From Escherichia phage TH12: a stretch of 64,000 nucleotides of DNA. The stretch is from sequence record MT446390.1; one strand, 5' to 3'. Below, in pieces: positions 32,241 through 42,815 of the stretch. Position numbers and translations under genes: made by a program. The notes under the pieces are model-generated. The model was not told the DNA's origin, ran no database searches, and was given only the letters and a program-made list of their open reading frames with translations. The stretch's first letter is position 1. Each line of letters opens with the position of its first letter.

Positions 32241-34952
32241 ATGAAAGAATTTTACTTAACGGTTGAACAGATTGGTGATTCAATTTTTGAACGTTACATC
32301 GATTCTAATGGCCGTGAACGTACTCGTGAAGTAGAATATAAACCATCGTTGTTTGCACATTGTCCAGAAAGTCAGGCTACTAAATATTTCGATATCTACG
32401 GTAAACCTTGTACTCGTAAGTTGTTCGCTAATATGCGTGATGCCTCCCAATGGATTAAACGCATGGAAGATATCGGACTTGAAGCACTTGGCATGGACGA
32501 TTTCAAATTGGCGTATTTGTCTGACACTTATAACTATGAAATCAAATACGACCATACAAAAATTCGTGTGGCTAACTTCGACATCGAAGTAACATCTCCG
32601 GATGGGTTCCCTGAGCCGTCACAAGCAAAACATCCGATTGATGCTATCACCCATTATGACTCAATTGACGACAGGTTCTACGTATTTGATCTATTGAATT
32701 CTCCGTATGGTAATGTAGAAGAATGGTCTATCGAAATTGCGGCTAAGCTTCAAGAACAAGGCGGTGATGAAGTTCCATCTGAAATTATCGATAAAATCAT
32801 TTATATGCCATTCGATAACGAAAAAGAATTGTTGATGGAATATCTCAACTTCTGGCAACAGAAAACTCCTGTCATTTTGACTGGATGGAACGTTGAGTCA
32901 TTTGATATTCCATATGTGTATAACCGAATCAAGAATATTTTTGGCGAATCTACTGCGAAACGTTTATCACCACATCGTAAAACTCGTGTTAAAGTTATCG
33001 AAAACATGTATGGTTCTCGTGAAATCATTACATTGTTCGGTATCTCTGTTCTTGATTACATTGACCTTTACAAAAAATTCTCTTTTACCAATCAACCGTC
33101 GTATTCTCTGGATTACATTTCAGAATTTGAATTGAACGTTGGTAAACTGAAATATGACGGCCCTATTTCTAAGCTTCGTGAAAGCAATCACCAACGATAT
33201 ATAAGCTATAACATCATCGACGTGTATCGTGTATTGCAAATTGATGCTAAGCGCCAGTTCATCAACTTGAGTTTGGACATGGGTTATTATGCTAAGATAC
33301 AGATTCAATCTGTGTTTAGCCCAATTAAAACATGGGATGCTATTATTTTTAATAGCCTTAAAGAGCAGAACAAGGTGATTCCACAAGGTCGTTCTCACCC
33401 GGTTCAACCTTATCCTGGCGCTTTTGTTAAGGAACCTATTCCAAATCGATACAAATATGTAATGAGTTTCGACCTTACATCTCTGTATCCAAGTATTATT
33501 CGCCAAGTGAATATTAGCCCAGAAACAATAGCAGGAACGTTTAAAGTAGCTCCATTGCATGATTATATTAACGCAATCGCTGAACGTCCTTCAGATGTGT
33601 ACAGTTGCTCCCCTAACGGCATGATGTATTATAAAGACCGTGATGGTGTAGTTCCAACTGAAATCACTAAGGTCTTTAATCAACGTAAAGAACATAAAGG
33701 TTACATGCTTGCAGCTCAACGTAATGGTGAAATAATTAAAGAGGCATTGCATAATCCTAATCTTTCTGTTGACGAACCATTAGATGTTGATTATCGTTTC
33801 GACTTCACTGATGAGATTAAAGAAAAGATTAAAAAGTTGTCTGCTAAATCTCTTAATGAAATGTTGTTTAGAGCTCAACGTACTGAAGTTGCAGGTATGA
33901 CTGCACAGATTAACCGTAAATTGCTCATCAACTCACTTTATGGTGCACTTGGCAACGTTTGGTTCCGTTATTATGATTTGCGTAATGCTACTGCAATCAC
34001 AACATTTGGTCAAATGGCTTTACAATGGATTGAACGTAAAGTTAATGAATATCTGAACGAAGTTTGTGGTACAGAAGGTGAAGCTTTCGTTCTTTATGGT
34101 GATACAGACTCTATTTACGTATCTGCAGATAAAATTATTGATAAGGTTGGTGAATCTAAATTCCGTGATACCAACCATTGGGTAGACTTCTTAGATAAGT
34201 TCGCACGTGAACGTATGGAACCAGCTATTGATAAAGGTTTCCGTGAAATGTGTGAATACATGAACAATAAACAACACTTAATGTTCATGGACCGAGAAGC
34301 TATCGCTGGTCCTCCGCTTGGTTCTAAAGGTATTGGCGGATTCTGGACTGGTAAGAAACGTTATGCATTAAACGTGTGGGATATGGAAGGAACCAGATAC
34401 GCTGAGCCTAAACTCAAAATCATGGGTCTCGAAACACAGAAATCTTCGACCCCTAAAGCAGTACAGAAAGCTCTTAAAGAATGTATTCGCCGTATGCTTC
34501 AAGAAGGTGAAGAATCATTACAAGAATATTTTAAAGAGTTTGAAAAAGAATTCCGTCAATTGAATTATATTAGCATCGCGTCGGTATCTTCTGCGAATAA
34601 CATTGCTAAATATGACGTTGGTGGATTCCCTGGTCCTAAATGTCCGTTCCATATTCGTGGAATTCTGACATATAACCGAGCTATCAAAGGTAATATTGAT
34701 GCTCCACAAGTTGTAGAAGGCGAAAAGGTATACGTTCTGCCTTTACGTGATGGAAACCCGTTCGGTGATAAATGTATCGCATGGCCTTCTGGTACTGAAA
34801 TCACAGATTTAATTAAAGACGACGTACTTCATTGGATGGACTACACTGTTCTCCTTGAGAAGACATTTATTAAACCACTTGAAGGATTCACATCAGCAGC
34901 GAAACTCGATTACGAGAAGAAAGCATCTCTGTTCGATATGTTCGATTTTTGA
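32241..34952 (+). CDS. 43: DNA polymerase (family B) gp43
   Basis: 903 aa; N-terminus MKEFYLTVEQIGDSIFERYIDSNGRERTREVEYKPSLF matches recalled RB69 gp43; exo FDIEV, pol motifs DxxSLYPS and YGDTDS. Confidence 0.98.
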   Translation: MKEFYLTVEQIGDSIFERYIDSNGRERTREVEYKPSLFAHCPESQATKYFDIYGKPCTRKLFANMRDASQWIKRMEDIGLEALGMDDFKLAYLSDTYNYEIKYDHTKIRVANFDIEVTSPDGFPEPSQAKHPIDAITHYDSIDDRFYVFDLLNSPYGNVEEWSIEIAAKLQEQGGDEVPSEIIDKIIYMPFDNEKELLMEYLNFWQQKTPVILTGWNVESFDIPYVYNRIKNIFGESTAKRLSPHRKTRVKVIENMYGSREIITLFGISVLDYIDLYKKFSFTNQPSYSLDYISEFELNVGKLKYDGPISKLRESNHQRYISYNIIDVYRVLQIDAKRQFINLSLDMGYYAKIQIQSVFSPIKTWDAIIFNSLKEQNKVIPQGRSHPVQPYPGAFVKEPIPNRYKYVMSFDLTSLYPSIIRQVNISPETIAGTFKVAPLHDYINAIAERPSDVYSCSPNGMMYYKDRDGVVPTEITKVFNQRKEHKGYMLAAQRNGEIIKEALHNPNLSVDEPLDVDYRFDFTDEIKEKIKKLSAKSLNEMLFRAQRTEVAGMTAQINRKLLINSLYGALGNVWFRYYDLRNATAITTFGQMALQWIERKVNEYLNEVCGTEGEAFVLYGDTDSIYVSADKIIDKVGESKFRDTNHWVDFLDKFARERMEPAIDKGFREMCEYMNNKQHLMFMDREAIAGPPLGSKGIGGFWTGKKRYALNVWDMEGTRYAEPKLKIMGLETQKSSTPKAVQKALKECIRRMLQEGEESLQEYFKEFEKEFRQLNYISIASVSSANNIAKYDVGGFPGPKCPFHIRGILTYNRAIKGNIDAPQVVEGEKVYVLPLRDGNPFGDKCIAWPSGTEITDLIKDDVLHWMDYTVLLEKTFIKPLEGFTSAAKLDYEKKASLFDMFDF

Positions 34953-34992
34953 TATAATGCCATGGACGGTAAACTAATTAAATGAGAGAAAT

Positions 34993-35628
34993 ATGAAAAC
35001 TACACCAATCACTATCGCTATTGACGCAATCGTAAAACAAGCTTCATCTCTTGCCACTATGGCTAAAGTAATTAGTCAAAACTCTGCCCGATATAATGCT
35101 ATTCTTGAAACTCTTCGTCGCCCTGGACTGAGTAATTATGAAAGCCGAGTAATTATTACAGGTGTTGGTAAGAACGCTAATATCGCAACTAAAGCTTCCG
35201 AGACTTTTGCTTCACTAGGTATTCCTAGCATGTATTTGAACACCGGGCATTATTCTCATGGCGACGCAGGGTTTATTGCACCTAATGATGTATTAGTTCA
35301 CATCAGTCGTTCTGGTAAGACTGAAGAAATGATAGGTGTTGCTAAACATCTTCGTATGATTCGTCCTCAGGTTAAACAGATTCTGTTACATTGTAACCCT
35401 GACATTCCGCAAGAATACGAAGCTCTTTTTGATTATACGTTCTGTACAGGCATCGCGGTAGAGGTTGATGAGAATTCTCTGGCTCCGACCATGTCCACTA
35501 CATTGTTGTTAGCGCTTATCGATACGTTTGCTATCAACCTTTCGTCTGAACGTGGATTTACCTCTAATGACTTCCTTAAGTTCCACCCTGGTGGTGCACT
35601 AGGTGCCATGTTACGAGGCGAACAATGA
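34993..35628 (+). CDS. SIS-domain sugar-phosphate isomerase (arabinose-5-phosphate isomerase-like)
   Basis: SIS motifs ITGVGKNANIATK, SRSGKTEE, HPGGALG; 211 aa. Confidence 0.8.
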   Translation: MKTTPITIAIDAIVKQASSLATMAKVISQNSARYNAILETLRRPGLSNYESRVIITGVGKNANIATKASETFASLGIPSMYLNTGHYSHGDAGFIAPNDVLVHISRSGKTEEMIGVAKHLRMIRPQVKQILLHCNPDIPQEYEALFDYTFCTGIAVEVDENSLAPTMSTTLLLALIDTFAINLSSERGFTSNDFLKFHPGGALGAMLRGEQ

Positions 35629-35768
35629 AAGCAATAACAATAGGACTTTTACTATTGATGCTTGTCATGACTATCTACTGGAGCTTAACGGCTCCAGTAA
35701 TGATTCCGACTCTTATAATCGGATGGATTATGATTGGACTACAAACAAAGTATGAATGCTTTAACTAG
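35625..35768 (+). CDS. Small membrane peptide (47 aa), uncertain
   Basis: ATGA overlap with SIS gene stop; hydrophobic; below track cutoff. Confidence 0.4.
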   Translation: MKAITIGLLLLMLVMTIYWSLTAPVMIPTLIIGWIMIGLQTKYECFN

Positions 35769-35809
35769 AATAGTGTACAATACACCTACTTACCAATGAG
35801 GACCACAAC

Positions 35810-37495
35810 ATGAAAAAAGCTGTTATTCTTGGTGCTGGACTGGCAACTCGTTTGTATCCAATAACGCACCATATTCCTAAGGTGCTTGTTAACTATAAAC
35901 AAGACACTATTCTGAGCAATTTGTATACAATTTATTCTGACCTTGGTGCAGATGAAATTATTGTAGTAGTTCATTCAAAATTTGTTGAAACTGTTCGAGC
36001 TTATTGTGAGCAAGAAGGGTTCAATGTGACTATTCGTACAGTTGATGAAGCGTATGGTTCTGCTTATGCTCTTGCTAAATTATACAAAGATTTAGATGGC
36101 CATAATGTAATTGTTAACTGGTGTGATATTATTCCTGATTTTGGTTCATGGTCTTGGAATGTTAACGCAATCTATGTTAAGGGTGACGAATGTCGATATA
36201 ATTTCGACGGTGAAAATATCACTAGCGTAGGTTCAACAGGTGGTAATGTTGTAGGAATTTATCAGTTCAAAGACTGGGAATTCTATATGGGTTCTACTGA
36301 TGAGGAAATTCATGAATACTGCAAAGGACGTGATTTCGTAGAATTCCTTTACGGCAGCGCATTCAATAAATCAGAGCTTATGAATCTAATTGATTTAGGT
36401 GATATGCCTAAACTTGAAAAAGCTCATGAAGTTCGTGAACTTAATCGTAGTTTTAATGCAGTTGAAATTGGTGAAGAAACTGTAACTAAATTCGCATTAA
36501 CCGAACAGGGCCGAGCTCTTCAGAAAGATGAGATTTCATGGTATCTTAAAGTGAAATCAGATTCAGTTCCTCAGTTAGTTTCTGTTAATGAAAATAACTT
36601 TGAAATGGAACGCATTAAAGGTAAGCCGGCATTTGAATATATTAAATCCAAATCGAGTCTTGCTCGTCCACAAATTGTTGATGCAATTTTAGATGCACTG
36701 AAATTCAGCACAGACACTTATTTTGTAAGTCCTGAAACTGTTCGTCGTGATTTCACTAAAGAATTCTATACGAAAGTTATTGATCGTTGTGAAAGCATTC
36801 AACCATTGATTGATTCATTTGGTAAAATCACACATGTGAACTACACTAAGATTGGACGTCTGAAGCCAATGCTGAAACAAGCTTTAGAACACCTTATTCG
36901 TTATCATAACCGTTCTCAGGGACAGTACTCTGTTATTCATGGTGACCCGAACTTCAGTAATACTATGATTACTGATAACGGCGAAGTCAAGTTTATCGAC
37001 CCTCGTGGATATTTTGGCGAAACCAAGATTTACGGGCCAAAATTGTACGATGAAGCTAAAGTGCTTTATGCTGTTTCAGGTTATGATGAATTCAATGCTA
37101 ATCCGACCTGGGGACAGTTTACTATTGATGAAACAACTTGTAATGTGACTATTAACATCAATCCATTAATTTACAAATATGGAAAGATGAGTTCGTTTAA
37201 CGAGTATCATCATTTGGCGGTGGCAATTATCTGGATTGCATTAGGTGGTTATTTCAAGAATAATCCACTTAAAGCGGTAGCCGCATATTATAAAGGTATG
37301 GAACTTCTGACTAAGCAATTACGCAACATGGGCCGTGTACTTCAAGACGGCTCTATTAGTTATGACGTAGCAGAACCTGTAACGGCTACTCTGATTACAA
37401 AAAATCCTGGTAAATGGGTACTAACTGATAAAGAAACTGGTGTTTCCTATCGTCCAATCGGTGGCGATATCACTCATCAATGGGAACGAATCTAA
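35810..37495 (+). CDS. Bifunctional sugar-1-phosphate nucleotidyltransferase / APH-fold sugar kinase
   Basis: N-term AVILGAGLATRLYPITHHIPKVLV (NDP-sugar pyrophosphorylase G-loop); C-term VIHGDPNFSNTMI...FIDPRG (APH/choline-kinase-type motifs); 561 aa. Confidence 0.75.
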   Translation: MKKAVILGAGLATRLYPITHHIPKVLVNYKQDTILSNLYTIYSDLGADEIIVVVHSKFVETVRAYCEQEGFNVTIRTVDEAYGSAYALAKLYKDLDGHNVIVNWCDIIPDFGSWSWNVNAIYVKGDECRYNFDGENITSVGSTGGNVVGIYQFKDWEFYMGSTDEEIHEYCKGRDFVEFLYGSAFNKSELMNLIDLGDMPKLEKAHEVRELNRSFNAVEIGEETVTKFALTEQGRALQKDEISWYLKVKSDSVPQLVSVNENNFEMERIKGKPAFEYIKSKSSLARPQIVDAILDALKFSTDTYFVSPETVRRDFTKEFYTKVIDRCESIQPLIDSFGKITHVNYTKIGRLKPMLKQALEHLIRYHNRSQGQYSVIHGDPNFSNTMITDNGEVKFIDPRGYFGETKIYGPKLYDEAKVLYAVSGYDEFNANPTWGQFTIDETTCNVTININPLIYKYGKMSSFNEYHHLAVAIIWIALGGYFKNNPLKAVAAYYKGMELLTKQLRNMGRVLQDGSISYDVAEPVTATLITKNPGKWVLTDKETGVSYRPIGGDITHQWERI

Positions 37496-37881
37496 TGCAC
37501 CGTGTAGAAAACATGCTTAATCTTTGTTTTGATGTCGATGATTGTATAACAGAGTGGAATAACAATCGTGATTACGTGAACTTCAAACCAGACGTCGAAA
37601 TGGTGTCTGCCATTAATGCCCTGTATGATGCAGGGCATACCATAACGCTTTACACTGCTCGTGGTATGAAGTCAGTAGGTCCTGGTCGTATAGCAATTGA
37701 CATTCTCCCAAGTCTGATTCAGAACTTGGCAAACATTGGCTTGAAGTACCATAATTTGCTAACACATAAACCAGTATATGATTGGATTATCGACGACAAA
37801 GCTATGCGTCCTGACGAATTCAAAGCTCTTATGAATAAAGGCGAATTCGAAACATTTAAATCGTATAAACCGAATCTATAA
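37495..37881 (+). CDS. HAD-superfamily phosphatase-like protein
   Basis: Motif I FDVDDCIT near N-terminus; TAATG overlap with upstream stop; 128 aa. Confidence 0.65.
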   Translation: MHRVENMLNLCFDVDDCITEWNNNRDYVNFKPDVEMVSAINALYDAGHTITLYTARGMKSVGPGRIAIDILPSLIQNLANIGLKYHNLLTHKPVYDWIIDDKAMRPDEFKALMNKGEFETFKSYKPNL

Positions 37882-37939
37882 TAATTTAAGTAAGACCTGC
37901 AAAAAAACCATCGCATCAATTAACGCGAGATGCAAAAAA

Positions 37940-39100
37940 ATGAATACTTTTAAAATCGGAACGAATTTTGATTTAGCTCTTCTTGATAAAATCGTAGAGC
38001 TCAATAAAACCTATCCTAATAGCTTGATAAACGAAGTATATGGCTCTACAAGAGAAATGGCTTTTGTAGCAGCCAGACCTGATTTTAGGCTTCCTGACGT
38101 TGACAAAAAGATGTTAGAAGACTACGTTAAACGTTGTAACGAATTAGGTATTTGCTTTAACTATACACTCAACACGATAAATCCTGGTTCAAAAAGAGAA
38201 CTAGTTGAGTGGAAGAAGAAAGCTATTCAGGATTATGTTCAGTATCTTTGGTCAATAGGCGTATGGCGTATTACTATCGCTAACCCTGTTGTTATGGAAA
38301 TTGTTCGTGAAGTCAATAAAGATATTGAGATTGAAGTTTCAACAATTCTACATGTCGATGCGGTAACTCAAATCAAATACTTACATGACCAATATAACAT
38401 CAAAAAGGTCTGTTGCGGAATTCATAAGAACCGTTCAGTTTCTTTCCTGAAGCGTGCAGCAGAGTTTTGCAATAAGAACAATATAATATTTGAAGTTCTT
38501 GTAAATGAGTTCTGTTCTAATGCTGGTAAAGGGTATACAACACATTGTAGTTATCGTGACTCTTGCTATATTTTCCATAGTACTGATGTTACAGCTGATG
38601 ATGCTAAATCCTTAAATGGATATCCAATGCAACACTGCATTAAAGCTCGTGATACAGACCCATTTAACTGGTTGAGAACTCGTTTTGTTCGTCCTCAAGA
38701 TTTGAAACTTTATAATGATATTGGTATCACTCAATTCAAAGTTTCAGGACGTACAGGTAGCACAGACTACATTTTGAAAGTTCTTGAAGCATACGCTTCT
38801 GAAAAGTTTGAAGGTAATTTGTTAGAACTGTGGAAGCCTTTAGAGACTATTTTCACTCTTGAAAATGAGACTGAGTTTTCACATACAGTAAATATTGAAA
38901 CCTCTTTGTTAGATGGCTTTTTAGAAAAAAGGTGGTTCAGACATCCAGATTTTGATTGTGCTAATGAAATCTGTGGGTCAACGTGTACATATTGTGAAAG
39001 GTATTATAAACGTCAATTATCTAAAAACGGGTTAGCAGAAAACTCCATATCTATTATTGATATAACTAACTCTGATGACGCTTTGAGGTACCCGGAATGA
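37940..39100 (+). CDS. Cys-rich enzyme, tentatively peptidase-U32-like (Fe-S?)
   Basis: 386 aa; Cys clusters VCCG, EFCSNAGKGYTTHCSYRDSCY, DCANEICGSTCTYC; family call is weak by-eye resemblance only. Confidence 0.6.
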   Translation: MNTFKIGTNFDLALLDKIVELNKTYPNSLINEVYGSTREMAFVAARPDFRLPDVDKKMLEDYVKRCNELGICFNYTLNTINPGSKRELVEWKKKAIQDYVQYLWSIGVWRITIANPVVMEIVREVNKDIEIEVSTILHVDAVTQIKYLHDQYNIKKVCCGIHKNRSVSFLKRAAEFCNKNNIIFEVLVNEFCSNAGKGYTTHCSYRDSCYIFHSTDVTADDAKSLNGYPMQHCIKARDTDPFNWLRTRFVRPQDLKLYNDIGITQFKVSGRTGSTDYILKVLEAYASEKFEGNLLELWKPLETIFTLENETEFSHTVNIETSLLDGFLEKRWFRHPDFDCANEICGSTCTYCERYYKRQLSKNGLAENSISIIDITNSDDALRYPE

Positions 39101-39336
39101 TTTCTAGAAAAAGTTTTAATTATAAACTTAACGAAGAGATTTTGACTATGAAACTGAACACTAACGAACAAATTCTTAAAAAGGCCCTTATGGGCCTGTT
39201 TGAAACCAAAGCGGCTAAAGTGATTAAAGAACCTGTTCAATTGGAATACTACACTGATGCATTCCTTCATAGTGTTCTTGGAAGTATAGATTCTGAAGCT
39301 TTACGTTATATCAACATTGTCAAGAAATTCAAATAA
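39097..39336 (+). CDS. Hypothetical protein (79 aa)
   Basis: ATGA overlap; GAGGT upstream. Confidence 0.5.
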   Translation: MISRKSFNYKLNEEILTMKLNTNEQILKKALMGLFETKAAKVIKEPVQLEYYTDAFLHSVLGSIDSEALRYINIVKKFK

Positions 39337-39378
39337 GCTTTATGAATTGAGTATATAATAAATTGTATTGAGGTAAAT

Positions 39379-40095
39379 ATGGGAAAACATAACACAATGA
39401 AATATATCAAAGCCGCAGATTTTCAAACCGCATTTAAAGCAGTCAATCGTGAAATTTTAGAAAACCCCGAATTCGTAACTGATTCTCGTATTGGACGTTG
39501 TAATGAAATTGGGTCTATGACAGTAGTTGTTGACACTCCATCATCATTCAAAATGACCGACCCACGTATTAACCGCATCTCTTATGAATATGCCGAAGAC
39601 TTCTGGAAGTTTATGATTTCTGGTGGTACCAACGCAGAAGAAGCGTTTAAGGCATATCCTAATGTCGCTAAATTTATTTCTAAACCAAAATCAGATGTTT
39701 TGCCGGCGAACTTCAACACTTTCTATGGTCCTCGCATTGCGGCCCAATTACCAACTCTTCTAAAAGAACTTAAAGAAAAACCTAACTCTCGAAGAGTTGT
39801 GTTCCAAATTCTAGAAAGTTCTGATCAGGCTTTGCTTGATTCGGACGAAACACTTGAATATCCATGTACTGACTCAGTAACTTATTATATTCGTGATGGT
39901 AAGCTTTATACCCACTGTCATATGCGTTCTCAGAACTGTGCTGTTGTTATGCAGTTGGATTTTTATCTCCAAGGAAAATTACTTCATTATATCGCTAACG
40001 AATGTGGTGTAGAAGTTGGTGATTATACTCATACCATGGTAAGTGCCCATGTGTTTGAACGTGATTTTGATTATGTTAAAGGATTCCTTGACTAA
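39379..40095 (+). CDS. 42: dCMP hydroxymethylase homolog (thymidylate-synthase superfamily), divergent
   Basis: KPNSRRVVFQIL vs T4 NPDSRRGIMIY; PCTDSVTYYIRDGK...HMRSQN vs T4 MCTNTVQYLIRDKK...NMRSND; SAHVFERDF vs SLHVYSRHF; 238 aa. Confidence 0.75.
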   Translation: MGKHNTMKYIKAADFQTAFKAVNREILENPEFVTDSRIGRCNEIGSMTVVVDTPSSFKMTDPRINRISYEYAEDFWKFMISGGTNAEEAFKAYPNVAKFISKPKSDVLPANFNTFYGPRIAAQLPTLLKELKEKPNSRRVVFQILESSDQALLDSDETLEYPCTDSVTYYIRDGKLYTHCHMRSQNCAVVMQLDFYLQGKLLHYIANECGVEVGDYTHTMVSAHVFERDFDYVKGFLD

Positions 40096-40994
40096 TGGCT
40101 ATTTTCCGCGTACCAATCTTGAGTATGCGGTCTTATGAAACTGGACAGTATGCTATCCTTAAGGATGGCAACTTCCAACTTCATTTGCACCGTGCTAATC
40201 CGGGTGATGTGATTACATATCCACGTAATGCATCTGATATTAAAGAATGCGAACGTCTTTTCCCAGAATTTAAGTTTGTTCCATTATGGTATAAAGATAA
40301 CGCGTATAACACTCGTAAATATTTCTGGACTGAAAATGAATTTGTGGTTGATTCATTAATTGATTATTATGATTGTGATTTTCTAATCACAGATATCACT
40401 GGTTATGGCGGCGCTTTTGATGTGGAATTCAATTTCAATATCACTGCAGACCCTAATAAACCACGTTTTTATATTGATGAATTCTTAAAAACCGACATGT
40501 TGTCTGTTAATCGTTCACTTCAAACTACTGTGTTGAATGAACGTCAAAAAGGAGTGCTGGTTAACGCAGGTGCAGATGGTAATAAGATTATCGTAACGCA
40601 GAAAGTTATACGTCCTTCCATCATGCAGCGTCTTGTAGGTGATTTGGCTCCTATTCATCTAGATGGTATTTTTCATCCATTTCGAATTAGTGACCCATGT
40701 TATCGTTTTGAACAAGTGGTTGAATGTGCAATTCAATTAGGTCAACCGCTTTATATAACCGATCCAAATAATAGCTTCGACAGAAATAAGTATCCTGAAG
40801 AAGCGCTGATTCGAATTTTTAAACCAACTAAAACTGAGTACTATCAAATTCTTAAAGGACGTCCGAAAATTCAATATTTCGAAAATCCTGAAGAAGTATT
40901 CCATCCAGGTCTTGGTGAGTTCATCTACTTTAATGCTTTAATTTCTTCGCCGTATAATATACCTAAATACGAAGATGTCGTAATCGAGGAATAA
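40095..40994 (+). CDS. Hypothetical protein (299 aa) at the T4 beta-gt position
   Basis: TAATG overlap with 42 homolog; no family recognised. Confidence 0.6.
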   Translation: MAIFRVPILSMRSYETGQYAILKDGNFQLHLHRANPGDVITYPRNASDIKECERLFPEFKFVPLWYKDNAYNTRKYFWTENEFVVDSLIDYYDCDFLITDITGYGGAFDVEFNFNITADPNKPRFYIDEFLKTDMLSVNRSLQTTVLNERQKGVLVNAGADGNKIIVTQKVIRPSIMQRLVGDLAPIHLDGIFHPFRISDPCYRFEQVVECAIQLGQPLYITDPNNSFDRNKYPEEALIRIFKPTKTEYYQILKGRPKIQYFENPEEVFHPGLGEFIYFNALISSPYNIPKYEDVVIEE

Positions 40995-40995
40995 A

Positions 40996-41544
40996 ATGGC
41001 TAAAATTATTTTAGTAGACGGCCCAGATAATGCTGGTAAAACAACTTTCATTAATGACATAATGGAAATTAGTGAAAGATATGTAAAGATTGATTTCCCT
41101 AAACGAACAGTTGATGGACGTTTCGATGTTAAGTCTCGAAATGAAGTTGGTTGTTTCGAAACGATGTTGAATTATTTAGACCCTACTAAGATTTATCTGT
41201 TAGACCGTGGATATATTAGTAACTGGGTTTATGGACGTATTCGACAAGATGCGGACTCGGTTCTTGACGTTTATGAACAGGACTATGTTCGTCTTTGCCA
41301 AAACCATGATGTGTTCACAATTATTTTAACACGTAACGAAATGACTGAAAGTTTTGAAGACGACCTTATTACTTTGTCTTCATTCGGTTTTAATACAGTC
41401 GTTTCACATTTTGAAGAGTTTGCAATTCATAACAAAATCCAAACATATCAATTACTTAATCATGATGGTGCTAACAAAGTTATAGGATTTAATGCAAGCG
41501 AACGTAATTGTTTGATTACAGAAATCATCAAATGGGCTCGTTAA
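40996..41544 (+). CDS. P-loop kinase, thymidylate/dNMP-kinase-like
   Basis: Walker A ILVDGPDNAGKTT; LLDRGYISNWVYGR resembles Tmk DR(Y/H) region; 182 aa. Confidence 0.6.
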   Translation: MAKIILVDGPDNAGKTTFINDIMEISERYVKIDFPKRTVDGRFDVKSRNEVGCFETMLNYLDPTKIYLLDRGYISNWVYGRIRQDADSVLDVYEQDYVRLCQNHDVFTIILTRNEMTESFEDDLITLSSFGFNTVVSHFEEFAIHNKIQTYQLLNHDGANKVIGFNASERNCLITEIIKWAR

Positions 41545-41562
41545 GAGCCATTTAAAGTTTTA

Positions 41563-41589
41563 AATGCTGTATAACCCTTAGTATATAAT
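41563..41589 (+). promoter_or_regulatory. Candidate MotA-dependent middle promoter for uvsX
   Basis: aaTGCTgtA MotA-box-like 41563-41571, 12-bp gap, tataat 41584-41589. Confidence 0.45.
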
Positions 41590-41642
41590 CGTCTTATCTT
41601 TTAAACATGAGTAAAATATAATGATGCCTATGGAAAAATACA

Positions 41643-42815
41643 ATGTCTGATTTAAAATCTCGTCTGATTAAAGCTTCTACTTCTAAAATGACTGCGGACT
41701 TGACTAAGTCTAAGCTGTTTAATAATCGTGATGAAGTCCCTACTCGTATTCCGATGTTGAATATCGCACTAGGTGGTGCTCTGAATGCAGGATTGCAATC
41801 AGGCTTGACTATTTTTGCTGCACCTTCTAAACACTTTAAAACGCTGTTTGGACTAACTATGGTTGCAGCGTATATGAAGAAATATAAAGATGCAATCTGT
41901 TTGTTTTATGACTCAGAATTTGGTGCTTCAGAATCTTATTTTCGTTCAATGGGTGTTGATTTAGACCGTGTAGTTCATACTCCGATTCAATCTGTCGAAC
42001 AACTTAAAGTTGATATGACTAATCAGCTTGACGCGATTGAACGCGGTGATAAAGTTATTATCTTTATCGATTCAATCGGTAATACTGCATCTAAGAAAGA
42101 AACCGAAGATGCATTGAATGAGAAAGTCGTAGGTGATATGTCTCGTGCTAAGGCACTTAAATCTCTGTTCCGTATTGTGACTCCTTATCTGACTATTAAA
42201 GATATTCCATGTGTTGCAATCAACCATACAGCAATGGAAATCGGCGGATTGTATCCTAAAGAGATTATGGGCGGTGGTACAGGTATTCTTTATTCTGCCA
42301 ACACGGTATTTTTTATCTCTAAACGTCAGGTTAAAGAAGGTACAGAATTGACCGGTTATGACTTCACGTTGAAAGCGGAAAAATCTCGTACAGTTAAAGA
42401 GAAATCTACTTTCCCGATCACGGTTAATTTTGATGGCGGTATTGACCCATTCAGTGGCTTGTTAGAAATGGCAACTGAAATTGGTTTTGTAGTTAAGCCT
42501 AAAGCCGGGTGGTATGCTCGTGAATTCCTTGACGAAGAAACAGGCGAAATGATTCGTGAAGAGAAATCATGGCGTGCTAAAGCTACTGATTGTGTAGAAT
42601 TCTGGGGACCTTTGTTTAAACATAAGCCTTTCCGAGATGCAATTGAAACTAAATATAAACTAGGTGCTATCTCTTCTATTAAAGAAGTTGATGACGCTGT
42701 TAACGACCTTATTAATTGCAAAGCAACAACTAAAGTTCCGGTTAAAGCTTCTGATGCTCCGTCTGCAGCAGATATAGAAAACGACCTTGACGAAATGGAA
42801 GATTTCGATGAATAA
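41643..42815 (+). CDS. uvsX: RecA-like recombinase UvsX
   Basis: MSDLKSRLIKASTSKMTADLT...matches T4 UvsX N-terminus; C-terminal acidic tail; 390 aa. Confidence 0.95.
   Translation: MSDLKSRLIKASTSKMTADLTKSKLFNNRDEVPTRIPMLNIALGGALNAGLQSGLTIFAAPSKHFKTLFGLTMVAAYMKKYKDAICLFYDSEFGASESYFRSMGVDLDRVVHTPIQSVEQLKVDMTNQLDAIERGDKVIIFIDSIGNTASKKETEDALNEKVVGDMSRAKALKSLFRIVTPYLTIKDIPCVAINHTAMEIGGLYPKEIMGGGTGILYSANTVFFISKRQVKEGTELTGYDFTLKAEKSRTVKEKSTFPITVNFDGGIDPFSGLLEMATEIGFVVKPKAGWYAREFLDEETGEMIREEKSWRAKATDCVEFWGPLFKHKPFRDAIETKYKLGAISSIKEVDDAVNDLINCKATTKVPVKASDAPSAADIENDLDEMEDFDE

Follow-up and report, generated by a model that had tools for sequence, protein, structure and literature searches.

The window analyzed here is a stretch of 64,000 nucleotides of Escherichia phage TH12 (record MT446390.1), and the gene in question occupies positions 35810..37495 of its plus strand, where it encodes a protein of 561 residues with a predicted nucleotidyltransferase half and a predicted kinase half. 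The open reading frame (ORF) runs uninterrupted from an ATG start to a TAA stop codon, and a Shine-Dalgarno-like GAGGA can be read at 35798-35802 (+), 7 nucleotides before the ATG. At a genome GC content of 37%, the chance of 561 stop-free codons was roughly estimated at about 1e-17; a chance origin of the ORF is excluded. The protein matched PHROG 4098 over its full length (residues 1-561, E 1e-293), and homologues were found in 373 phage records, those of E. coli phages sharing from 42% to more than 99% identity. The ORFs around the cluster encode a T4-type sliding clamp, clamp loader, RegA, family-B DNA polymerase, UvsX and gp41 helicase. About 150 Mosigvirus genomes matched the 6.7-kb polymerase-to-UvsX stretch at 95-99% identity; the best of them was Escherichia phage CCU7 (99.3%). 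Judged by these matches, the DNA is that of a Mosigvirus, an RB69-like T-even phage.

An annotation made earlier from the letters alone, referred to here as the original prediction, had read the gene as a fusion of a sugar-1-phosphate nucleotidyltransferase and an APH-fold kinase in one polypeptide. Profiles, folds and invariant residues all support this reading. Domain mapping by profiles and structure prediction, which had been proposed as a check, divided the chain into a nucleotidyltransferase, a kinase and a C-terminal tail (boundaries in Table 1). The RmlA/GlmU-like part had been placed in the N-terminal 120 or so residues; its G-loop GAGLATRL and the motif PKVLV (residues 23-27, containing Lys24) are in place, the nucleotidyltransferase fold, however, spans about 207 residues. 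Pfam family PF00483 (NTP_transferase) matched residues 3-99 with 37 bits at a cut-off of 21.2. Searching the PDB for the N-terminal half with a profile built from 45 homologues gave the heptose-1-phosphate guanylyltransferase HddC as the best match (E 4e-13) and also LicC (E 3.5e-11). In the predicted structure this half carries a complete Rossmann-like nucleotidyltransferase fold, and its top structural matches were all sugar-1-phosphate or phospho-alcohol nucleotidyltransferases. Invariant columns were G10, R14, K24, D106 (in NWCDI), D195, G197 and D198, with residue roles assigned by analogy.

In CDD, the N-terminus falls into the GT-A superfamily, and the protein itself might therefore be taken for a DNA glycosyltransferase whose GT-A-like N-domain moves a pentose to cytosine, as brought up in the study of Shewanella phage Thanatos on TH1_060, a 54% identical protein that is essential for phage propagation. 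We give hardly any credence to this role. The invariant G-loop, Lys24 and D-x-G are signatures of nucleotidyltransferases, and the top structural matches are all such enzymes; TH1_060 moved no xylose to DNA, dCMP or dCTP; and the arabinosyltransferases that have been assigned or shown are GT-B proteins.

For the C-terminal half, structure prediction gave the two-lobed fold of eukaryotic-like kinases, with helices forming the substrate lobe. The motifs for which it had been called a kinase were recovered, namely HGD (residues 377-379) with N384 after it, and IDPRG (residues 396-400). The expectation that both halves would match known families held for the nucleotidyltransferase, whereas the kinase half scored below threshold in Pfam itself (Fructosamin_kin 16.9 at a cut-off of 22.4; EcKL 16.1 at a cut-off of 22, residues 308-409). 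Its homologues P0056 and P0051, 43-44% identical, exceeded the PF01636 cut-off of 23.2 with 25.6 and 26.6 bits, respectively, and Foldseek supported the kinase fold, with APH(2'')-IIa (E 1.6e-7) among its matches. Invariant kinase columns were K227 (beta-3 Lys), E241 (alpha-C Glu), H377, G378, D379, N384 and D397. Both catalytic sets were invariant in the 45 homologues, at identities down to 29%; therefore, both halves appear to be under selection as active enzymes. PHROG 21938 aligned to residues 211-517, and was not used as proof of stand-alone kinases, since split mis-annotations such as RB69 ORF052c/053c could seed such families.

The tail (residues 508-561) is present in all homologues from T4-like phages (at least 37% identity); the distant homologues aligned (P0082-P0119) lack it. 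With a homologue from a phage with a DnaE polymerase, the BLAST match stopped near residue 505, and matches to giant-virus-like fusion proteins, described below, covered only about 88-90%. The tail might dock partner enzymes.

The gene lies directly upstream of a gene for a small HAD phosphatase. As had been noted from the letters, the two overlap: the TAA at 37493-37495 and the ATG at 37495-37497 share one A (TAATG, 37493..37497), an arrangement also annotated in RB69 and CAU_ECP01. Two in-frame start codons of the HAD gene come into consideration, ATG 37495 (128 residues, overlap of 1 nucleotide) and ATG 37480 (133 residues, overlap of 16 nucleotides). The former is used in the records of RB69 and CAU_ECP01, the equivalent of the latter in that of Bas47; GGGA at 9-12 nucleotides before 37495 favours the shorter form. 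The HAD protein matched TIGR01689, the NCBIfam capsule-biosynthesis phosphatase family. Upstream, the SIS-domain protein matched the NCBIfam models KpsF/GutQ (E 8.5e-32) and KdsD (E 3.4e-30). The order of the isomerase, nucleotidyltransferase-kinase, HAD, thymidylate-synthase-like and putative arabinosyltransferase genes is the same in TH12, RB69 and Bas47; with RB69 the agreement in gene order extends from DNA polymerase to UvsX. A scan of 34900-41700 for sigma-70 promoters and intrinsic terminators found none above shuffled expectation (20 promoter-like sites as compared to 27.6 expected). Co-expression of the cluster fits its tight packing on one strand, the TAATG overlap and the lack of a convincing internal terminator; a wider operon is not claimed.

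Relatives with known biology were compared. After removal of an extra C from the RB69 record, the gene was 98.2% identical at the nucleotide and 99.3% at the amino acid level to RB69 ORF53_52c, likewise of 561 residues; four substitutions (V59A, S139N, Q233H, I454V) were found and the extra C was the sole indel. Resequencing identified this C as a sequencing error that splits one 561-residue protein into ORF053c and ORF052c, and a role of ORF53_52c in UDP-arabinose synthesis was proposed at the same time (Thomas et al. 2018, PMC6024577). The protein of Bas47 (AlbertHofmann) was 99.1% identical and is annotated as a "putative enzyme involved in UDP-arabinose biosynthesis". The DNA of RB69 contains mono- and di-arabinosylated 5-hydroxycytosine and no hydroxymethylcytosine (Lee et al. 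2026, PMC13326640). Mosigvirus NP DNA carries 5-ara-dC and 5-ara-ara-dC, and for Bas46 and Bas47 doubly arabinosylated hydroxycytosine is stated in a source citing Mahler 2025.

In RB69, the thymidylate synthase homologue gp48 is a flavin- and O2-dependent 5-hydroxy-dCMP synthase, and gp52:53 has been assigned an N-terminal pyrophosphorylase and a C-terminal kinase domain; furthermore, UDP-arabinofuranose was effective in vitro as the donor for DLP3 glycosyltransferases acting on RB69 DNA (PMC13326640). The same paper relays results of He et al. (2026, Nat Chem Biol, doi 10.1038/s41589-026-02150-z) on coliphage HY126. According to this account AfhE, the counterpart of RB69 gp52:53, is a kinase converting arabinofuranose-5-phosphate (Araf5P) to the 1,5-bisphosphate (Araf1,5P), both activities (a kinase activity on arabinose-5-phosphate and a pyrophosphorylase activity for UDP-arabinose) are reported for it, and the 1,5-bisphosphate is the substrate of the HAD protein AfhF, a phosphatase dependent on Mg2+. 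AfhE is said there to have the two-domain architecture of RB69 gp52:53 and is termed "analogous"; it is likened to the TH12 protein by this description only. More distant full-length homologues, DLP3 gp82 (Acinetobacter) and Thanatos TH1_060, share about 54-57% identity and also come from phages with arabinosyl-5-hydroxycytosine. They differ in their hosts, DLP3 differs in that three arabinoses are added, and the Acinetobacter phages have no adjacent U32 gene. PDB sequence searches with the 561-residue protein turned up neither a closely related solved structure nor one of AfhE. Orthology to RB69, domain architecture and synteny place the TH12 protein in the RB69 gp52:53/AfhE family. The enzyme as such is already known: discussion of it dates back to 2018, and biochemical work on its family, in a related phage, appeared in 2026.

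We therefore propose, with a probability of roughly 85%, that the 561-residue protein is the bifunctional enzyme of a phage pathway leading to UDP-D-arabinofuranose. In this pathway, the SIS isomerase would convert host ribulose-5-phosphate to D-arabinose-5-phosphate. The C-terminal kinase, with K227, E241, D379, N384 and D397, would then use ATP to phosphorylate the anomeric C1 hydroxyl group, yielding arabinofuranose-1,5-bisphosphate, from which the translationally coupled HAD phosphatase would take off the 5-phosphate. The resulting arabinofuranose-1-phosphate (Araf-1-P) would be joined with UTP by the N-terminal nucleotidyltransferase (G-loop, K24, D106, D195) to give UDP-arabinofuranose and pyrophosphate. 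Finally, GT-B arabinosyltransferases would put one or two arabinoses on 5-hydroxycytosine in the DNA, which would be protected from host nucleases. From the TH12 analysis come the ORF, the two folds, the conservation of catalytic residues, the near-identity to RB69 and Bas47, synteny and the fusions with partner activities; the literature supplies both activities (for HY126 AfhE) as well as the phosphatase step, the UDP-arabinofuranose donor and the 5-hydroxycytosine acceptor. On this basis we infer that the TH12 orthologue uses the same substrates as AfhE. The pathway is further supported by the essentiality of Thanatos TH1_060, and by the four-domain fusions and the SIS gene kept beside a nucleotidyltransferase-kinase gene in a DnaE-type phage, both described below. 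The 5-phosphate held during C1 phosphorylation would lock the furanose ring, and a phosphatase step may stand between two activities of one polypeptide because C1 phosphorylation with O5 blocked would fix the furanose. The biological purpose of the enzyme would thus be DNA hypermodification, namely the supply of activated sugar for arabinosyl-5-hydroxycytosine. This modified base gives Mosigvirus and related phages protection against restriction enzymes and CRISPR-Cas and leaves them open to attack by type IV systems, which makes the pathway relevant both for phage therapy and for making UDP-arabinofuranose enzymatically.

Four points weigh against this assignment. The TH12 sequence itself stays below the cut-off of every Pfam kinase family. 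The biochemistry comes second-hand from HY126 AfhE, as relayed, and not from the TH12 or RB69 protein. Purified TH1_060 incubated with xylose-1-phosphate and any of five NTPs formed no NDP-sugar, the substrate in this case being a non-cognate pyranose. Finally, Table 1 of PMC13326640 states that the phosphatase "dephosphorylates Araf5p to Ara" and the kinase "phosphorylates Ara to Araf1p".

The last wording describes a salvage order, in which the HAD protein frees D-arabinose from arabinose-5-phosphate, the kinase acts on C1 of the free pentose in the manner of AmgK or NahK and the nucleotidyltransferase comes next, so that the two steps are consecutive. The nearest structural relatives of the kinase half, which act on unphosphorylated small molecules such as choline, fructosamine and aminoglycosides, are in line with such an order. 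The AmgK-MurU and LicA-LicC pairs are generally known to operate in this way. We nevertheless regard it as improbable. The product is a furanoside, but dissolved free D-arabinose is mostly in the pyranose form, and on chemical grounds a 5-phosphate would enforce the furanose form. The set of isomerase, kinase, HAD phosphatase and nucleotidyltransferase parallels the GmhA/HldE/GmhB route to nucleoside diphosphate (NDP)-heptose, and the best profile match of the N-terminal domain is HddC. Furthermore, the text of PMC13326640, unlike its table, has AfhE make Araf1,5P from Araf5P and AfhF act on the bisphosphate, as passed on from the HY126 work.

A different substrate was considered as well, the protein then being a GlmU, a mannose-1-phosphate guanylyltransferase or a LicC/LicA-like combination of choline kinase and CTP:phosphocholine cytidylyltransferase. 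This is very unlikely. A left-handed beta-helix acetyltransferase domain as in GlmU is missing, and the C-terminal half is a kinase instead. All NCBIfam equivalog scores were far under their cut-offs, for example 20 bits as compared to 367 for GlmU (TIGR01173). A homologue of arabinose-5-phosphate isomerase is genetically linked to the 561-residue protein and occurs fused to it elsewhere, and the sugar on the DNA of RB69, Bas46/47 and NP is arabinose.

The UDP-D-arabinofuranose pathway proposed here can be compared with other paired or bifunctional systems. The NDP-heptose route, with GmhA (SIS isomerase), HldE or HddA (kinase), GmhB (HAD phosphatase) and the C-terminal part of HldE or HddC (nucleotidyltransferase), has the same four-step logic, and E. 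coli HldE fuses kinase and nucleotidyltransferase steps that are not consecutive. However, the HldE kinase has a ribokinase fold and its transferase a cytidylyltransferase fold, whereas the phage enzyme combines an APH fold with an RmlA/LicC-type domain; the heptose route acts on a C7 heptose, the phage route on a C5 furanose. By analogy, the phage enzyme resembles HldE functionally by convergence and stands outside the HldE family. The original prediction had invoked the logic of AmgK-MurU. This comparison is apt for the folds, since the two halves are structurally closest to the LicC/MurU/RmlA/HddC nucleotidyltransferases and to the choline-kinase/APH kinases, and LicA-LicC is as fitting a comparison; it does not extend to the substrates. 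The kinases of AmgK-MurU (MurNAc salvage) and of LicA-LicC or the fused LicCA (phosphocholine activation) take unphosphorylated substrates, and the steps are consecutive with no phosphatase, whereas the substrate reported for the phage family is a sugar-5-phosphate and a HAD step lies in between. The pathway logic, as judged by this analogy, is NDP-heptose-like and not that of salvage, which makes the NDP-heptose route the better functional analogue. Fkp of Bacteroides (L-fucokinase/GDP-fucose pyrophosphorylase) likewise has both activities in one chain, the pyrophosphorylase at the N-terminus and the anomeric kinase at the C-terminus; it differs in its GHMP-fold kinase and in salvaging free fucose.

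Additionally, homologues with 30-35% identity and a length of 880-955 residues were found that carry HAD, SIS, nucleotidyltransferase and kinase domains in one chain (P0084, P0089 and P0113, Table 1; also P0088, P0091, P0092 and P0093). Among about a dozen matches, the genomic context was examined for three, and all three lie on giant-virus-like contigs; the neighbours are MutS7-HNH, Rpb2 and RNA_pol_N on one, a 1553-residue PolB, a UCH protease and a sulfotransferase on another, and an SNF2 helicase, a C48 peptidase and an asparagine synthase on the third. One further four-domain fusion came from a eukaryotic transcriptome set. The SIS domain of P0084 was 32% identical to the phage SIS protein (E 2e-28). 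No pairwise similarity was detectable between the phage HAD protein and the HAD domain of the giant-virus-like fusions, which belong to different HAD subfamilies and are not orthologues. The phosphatase therefore appears to have been recruited twice independently to the same pathway, and such double recruitment is good evidence for an obligatory step. The four-domain chains are predicted to comprise the whole route from ribulose-5-phosphate to NDP-pentose in one polypeptide; this fusion of four activities in giant viruses may be new. On an 80-kb contig of an unrelated phage with a DnaE polymerase, a SIS gene likewise adjoins that of a 484-residue nucleotidyltransferase-kinase homologue (29% identity, E 2e-49). 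Five metagenomic proteins of 777-790 residues (P0110, P0111, P0116, P0117, P0120) combine nucleotidyltransferase and kinase with a C-terminal cupin or mannose-6-phosphate-isomerase-like domain. These cupin-type fusions suggest that the family also activates other sugars.

The next gene downstream of the HAD phosphatase encodes a U32-family protein with 10 invariant Cys residues. Its identity was 82% or more in each of the 221 phage records carrying it, which makes it far more conserved than its neighbours; the nucleotidyltransferase-kinase has diverged to 43-66% in the same phages. Acinetobacter was absent from the organisms with U32 matches, though 57 Acinetobacter phage records carry the nucleotidyltransferase-kinase. 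Acinetobacter is a strict aerobe. U32 relatives with 48-58% identity were found at four further loci (L013, L014, L016, L017), in deoxynucleotide modules of large phages beside dCMP deaminase, thymidylate kinase, UDG, dUTPase, NT5C and dNK; at L016, in the DnaE-type phage, the order is SIS, nucleotidyltransferase-kinase homologue, U32 and DAHP synthase (E 2.6e-70). PDB sequence searches with the U32 protein gave nothing meaningful. A mapping of Fe-S cysteines by alignment with E. coli UbiU, UbiV, RlhA and TrhP was dropped, identities of 14-24% being too unreliable.

The U32 proteins UbiU/V, RlhA (rRNA 5-hydroxycytidine) and TrhP (tRNA 5-hydroxyuridine) have been implicated in hydroxylations that proceed without O2; the UbiU/V-dependent steps take their oxygen from prephenate, a common chemistry based on prephenate has been proposed across U32 proteins, and DAHP synthase is the entry to the prephenate pathway (PMC10990095). 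In Lee et al. (2026, PMC13326640), the phage U32 protein is entered as a "sugar or heterocycle reductase" without discussion. As a hypothesis only, it may hydroxylate C5 of pyrimidines in a prephenate-dependent reaction without O2, which would open an anaerobic way to 5-hydroxypyrimidine nucleotides or to DNA containing them; if so, it would complement the O2-dependent thymidylate synthase homologue, and 5-hydroxycytosine could be made in the anoxic gut, in which the flavin- and O2-dependent enzyme cannot function. A link of U32 to anaerobic hydroxylation in these phages was not found in the literature searched, to which He et al. (2026) did not belong. The U32 protein could also be part of a wider module, in which the phage enzymes, including the HAD protein and perhaps the 54-residue tail, are physically assembled and channel arabinose-1,5-bisphosphate and arabinose-1-phosphate. 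Assembly of the phage proteins is conceivable because the giant-virus-like fusions join all four activities in one chain; the combined picture is tentative, and we consider it rather unlikely as a whole.

Positions of the main features are given in Table 1.

Table 1. Features of the putative arabinosylation cluster in the TH12 window, and four-domain homologues on other contigs (last three lines)
Feature	Position	Strand	Basis
561-residue bifunctional enzyme gene (predicted)	35810..37495	+	ORF; RB69 and Bas47 identity; PHROG 4098
Sugar-1-phosphate nucleotidyltransferase domain, residues 1 to ~207	35810..36430	+	invariant G10, R14, K24, D106, D195-x-G197-D198...K201
G-loop GAGLATRL, residues 8-15, NTP-binding signature	35831..35854	+	located by script; homologue alignment
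APH/choline-kinase-fold kinase domain, residues ~210-507	36437..37330	+	invariant K227, E241, H377-G-D379...N384, D397
Catalytic loop HGDPNFSN (HxDxxxxN), residues 377-384	36938..36961	+	located by script; homologue alignment
IDPRG, residues 396-400, with putative metal-binding Asp397 (DFG-equivalent)	36995..37009	+	located by script; homologue alignment
C-terminal tail, 54 residues (508-561), mostly beta and coil, pLDDT 80-88	37331..37492	+	
SIS-domain arabinose-5-phosphate isomerase (RB69 gp55 orthologue), predicted	34993..35628	+	Pfam SIS E 1e-9; PHROG 5670
Very hydrophobic peptide ORF, 47 codons, MKAITIGLLLLMLVMTIYWSLTAPVMIPTLIIGWIMIGLQTKYECFN	35625-35768	+	start overlaps SIS stop
Small HAD phosphatase (RB69 gp51/AfhF-type), motif I FDVDDC, predicted	37495..37881	+	TIGR01689 E 3.8e-13; PHROG 1238
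U32-family protein (RB69 gp50 orthologue)	37940..39100	+	
Thymidylate-synthase homologue (RB69 gp48 orthologue), predicted 5-hydroxy-dCMP synthase	39379..40095	+	Pfam Thymidylat_synt E 1.9e-15; function PMC13326640
299-residue protein (RB69 gp46:47 orthologue by position), proposed first DNA arabinosyltransferase	40095..40994	+	PHROG 3891 E 4e-155; synteny; role PMC13326640
Thymidylate-kinase-like nucleotide kinase (RB69 gp45 orthologue), predicted	40996..41544	+	PHROG 761; synteny
Four-domain fusion P0084	L002 8001-10781		
Four-domain fusion P0089	L006 8001-10862		
Four-domain fusion P0113	L008 5545-8283		

Counterparts of the small hydrophobic ORF behind the SIS gene are annotated as "hypothetical" in related phages, and in RB69 this position is taken by a shorter ORF054c. 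The public naming of this cluster is inconsistent, and many of the names are wrong. The 561-residue gene is found as "hypothetical", "bifunctional protein GlmU" or "mannose-1-phosphate guanyltransferase"; the identities as GlmU, mannose-1-phosphate guanylyltransferase and glycosyltransferase were rejected by fold and motifs. Among the neighbours, the HAD protein is named "phosphoheptose isomerase", the 5-hydroxy-dCMP synthase "dCMP hydroxymethylase" or "thymidylate synthase", the putative arabinosyltransferase "RNA polymerase binding protein" and the U32 protein "peptidase". The RB69 reference record still holds two split genes, 052/053 and 046/047.

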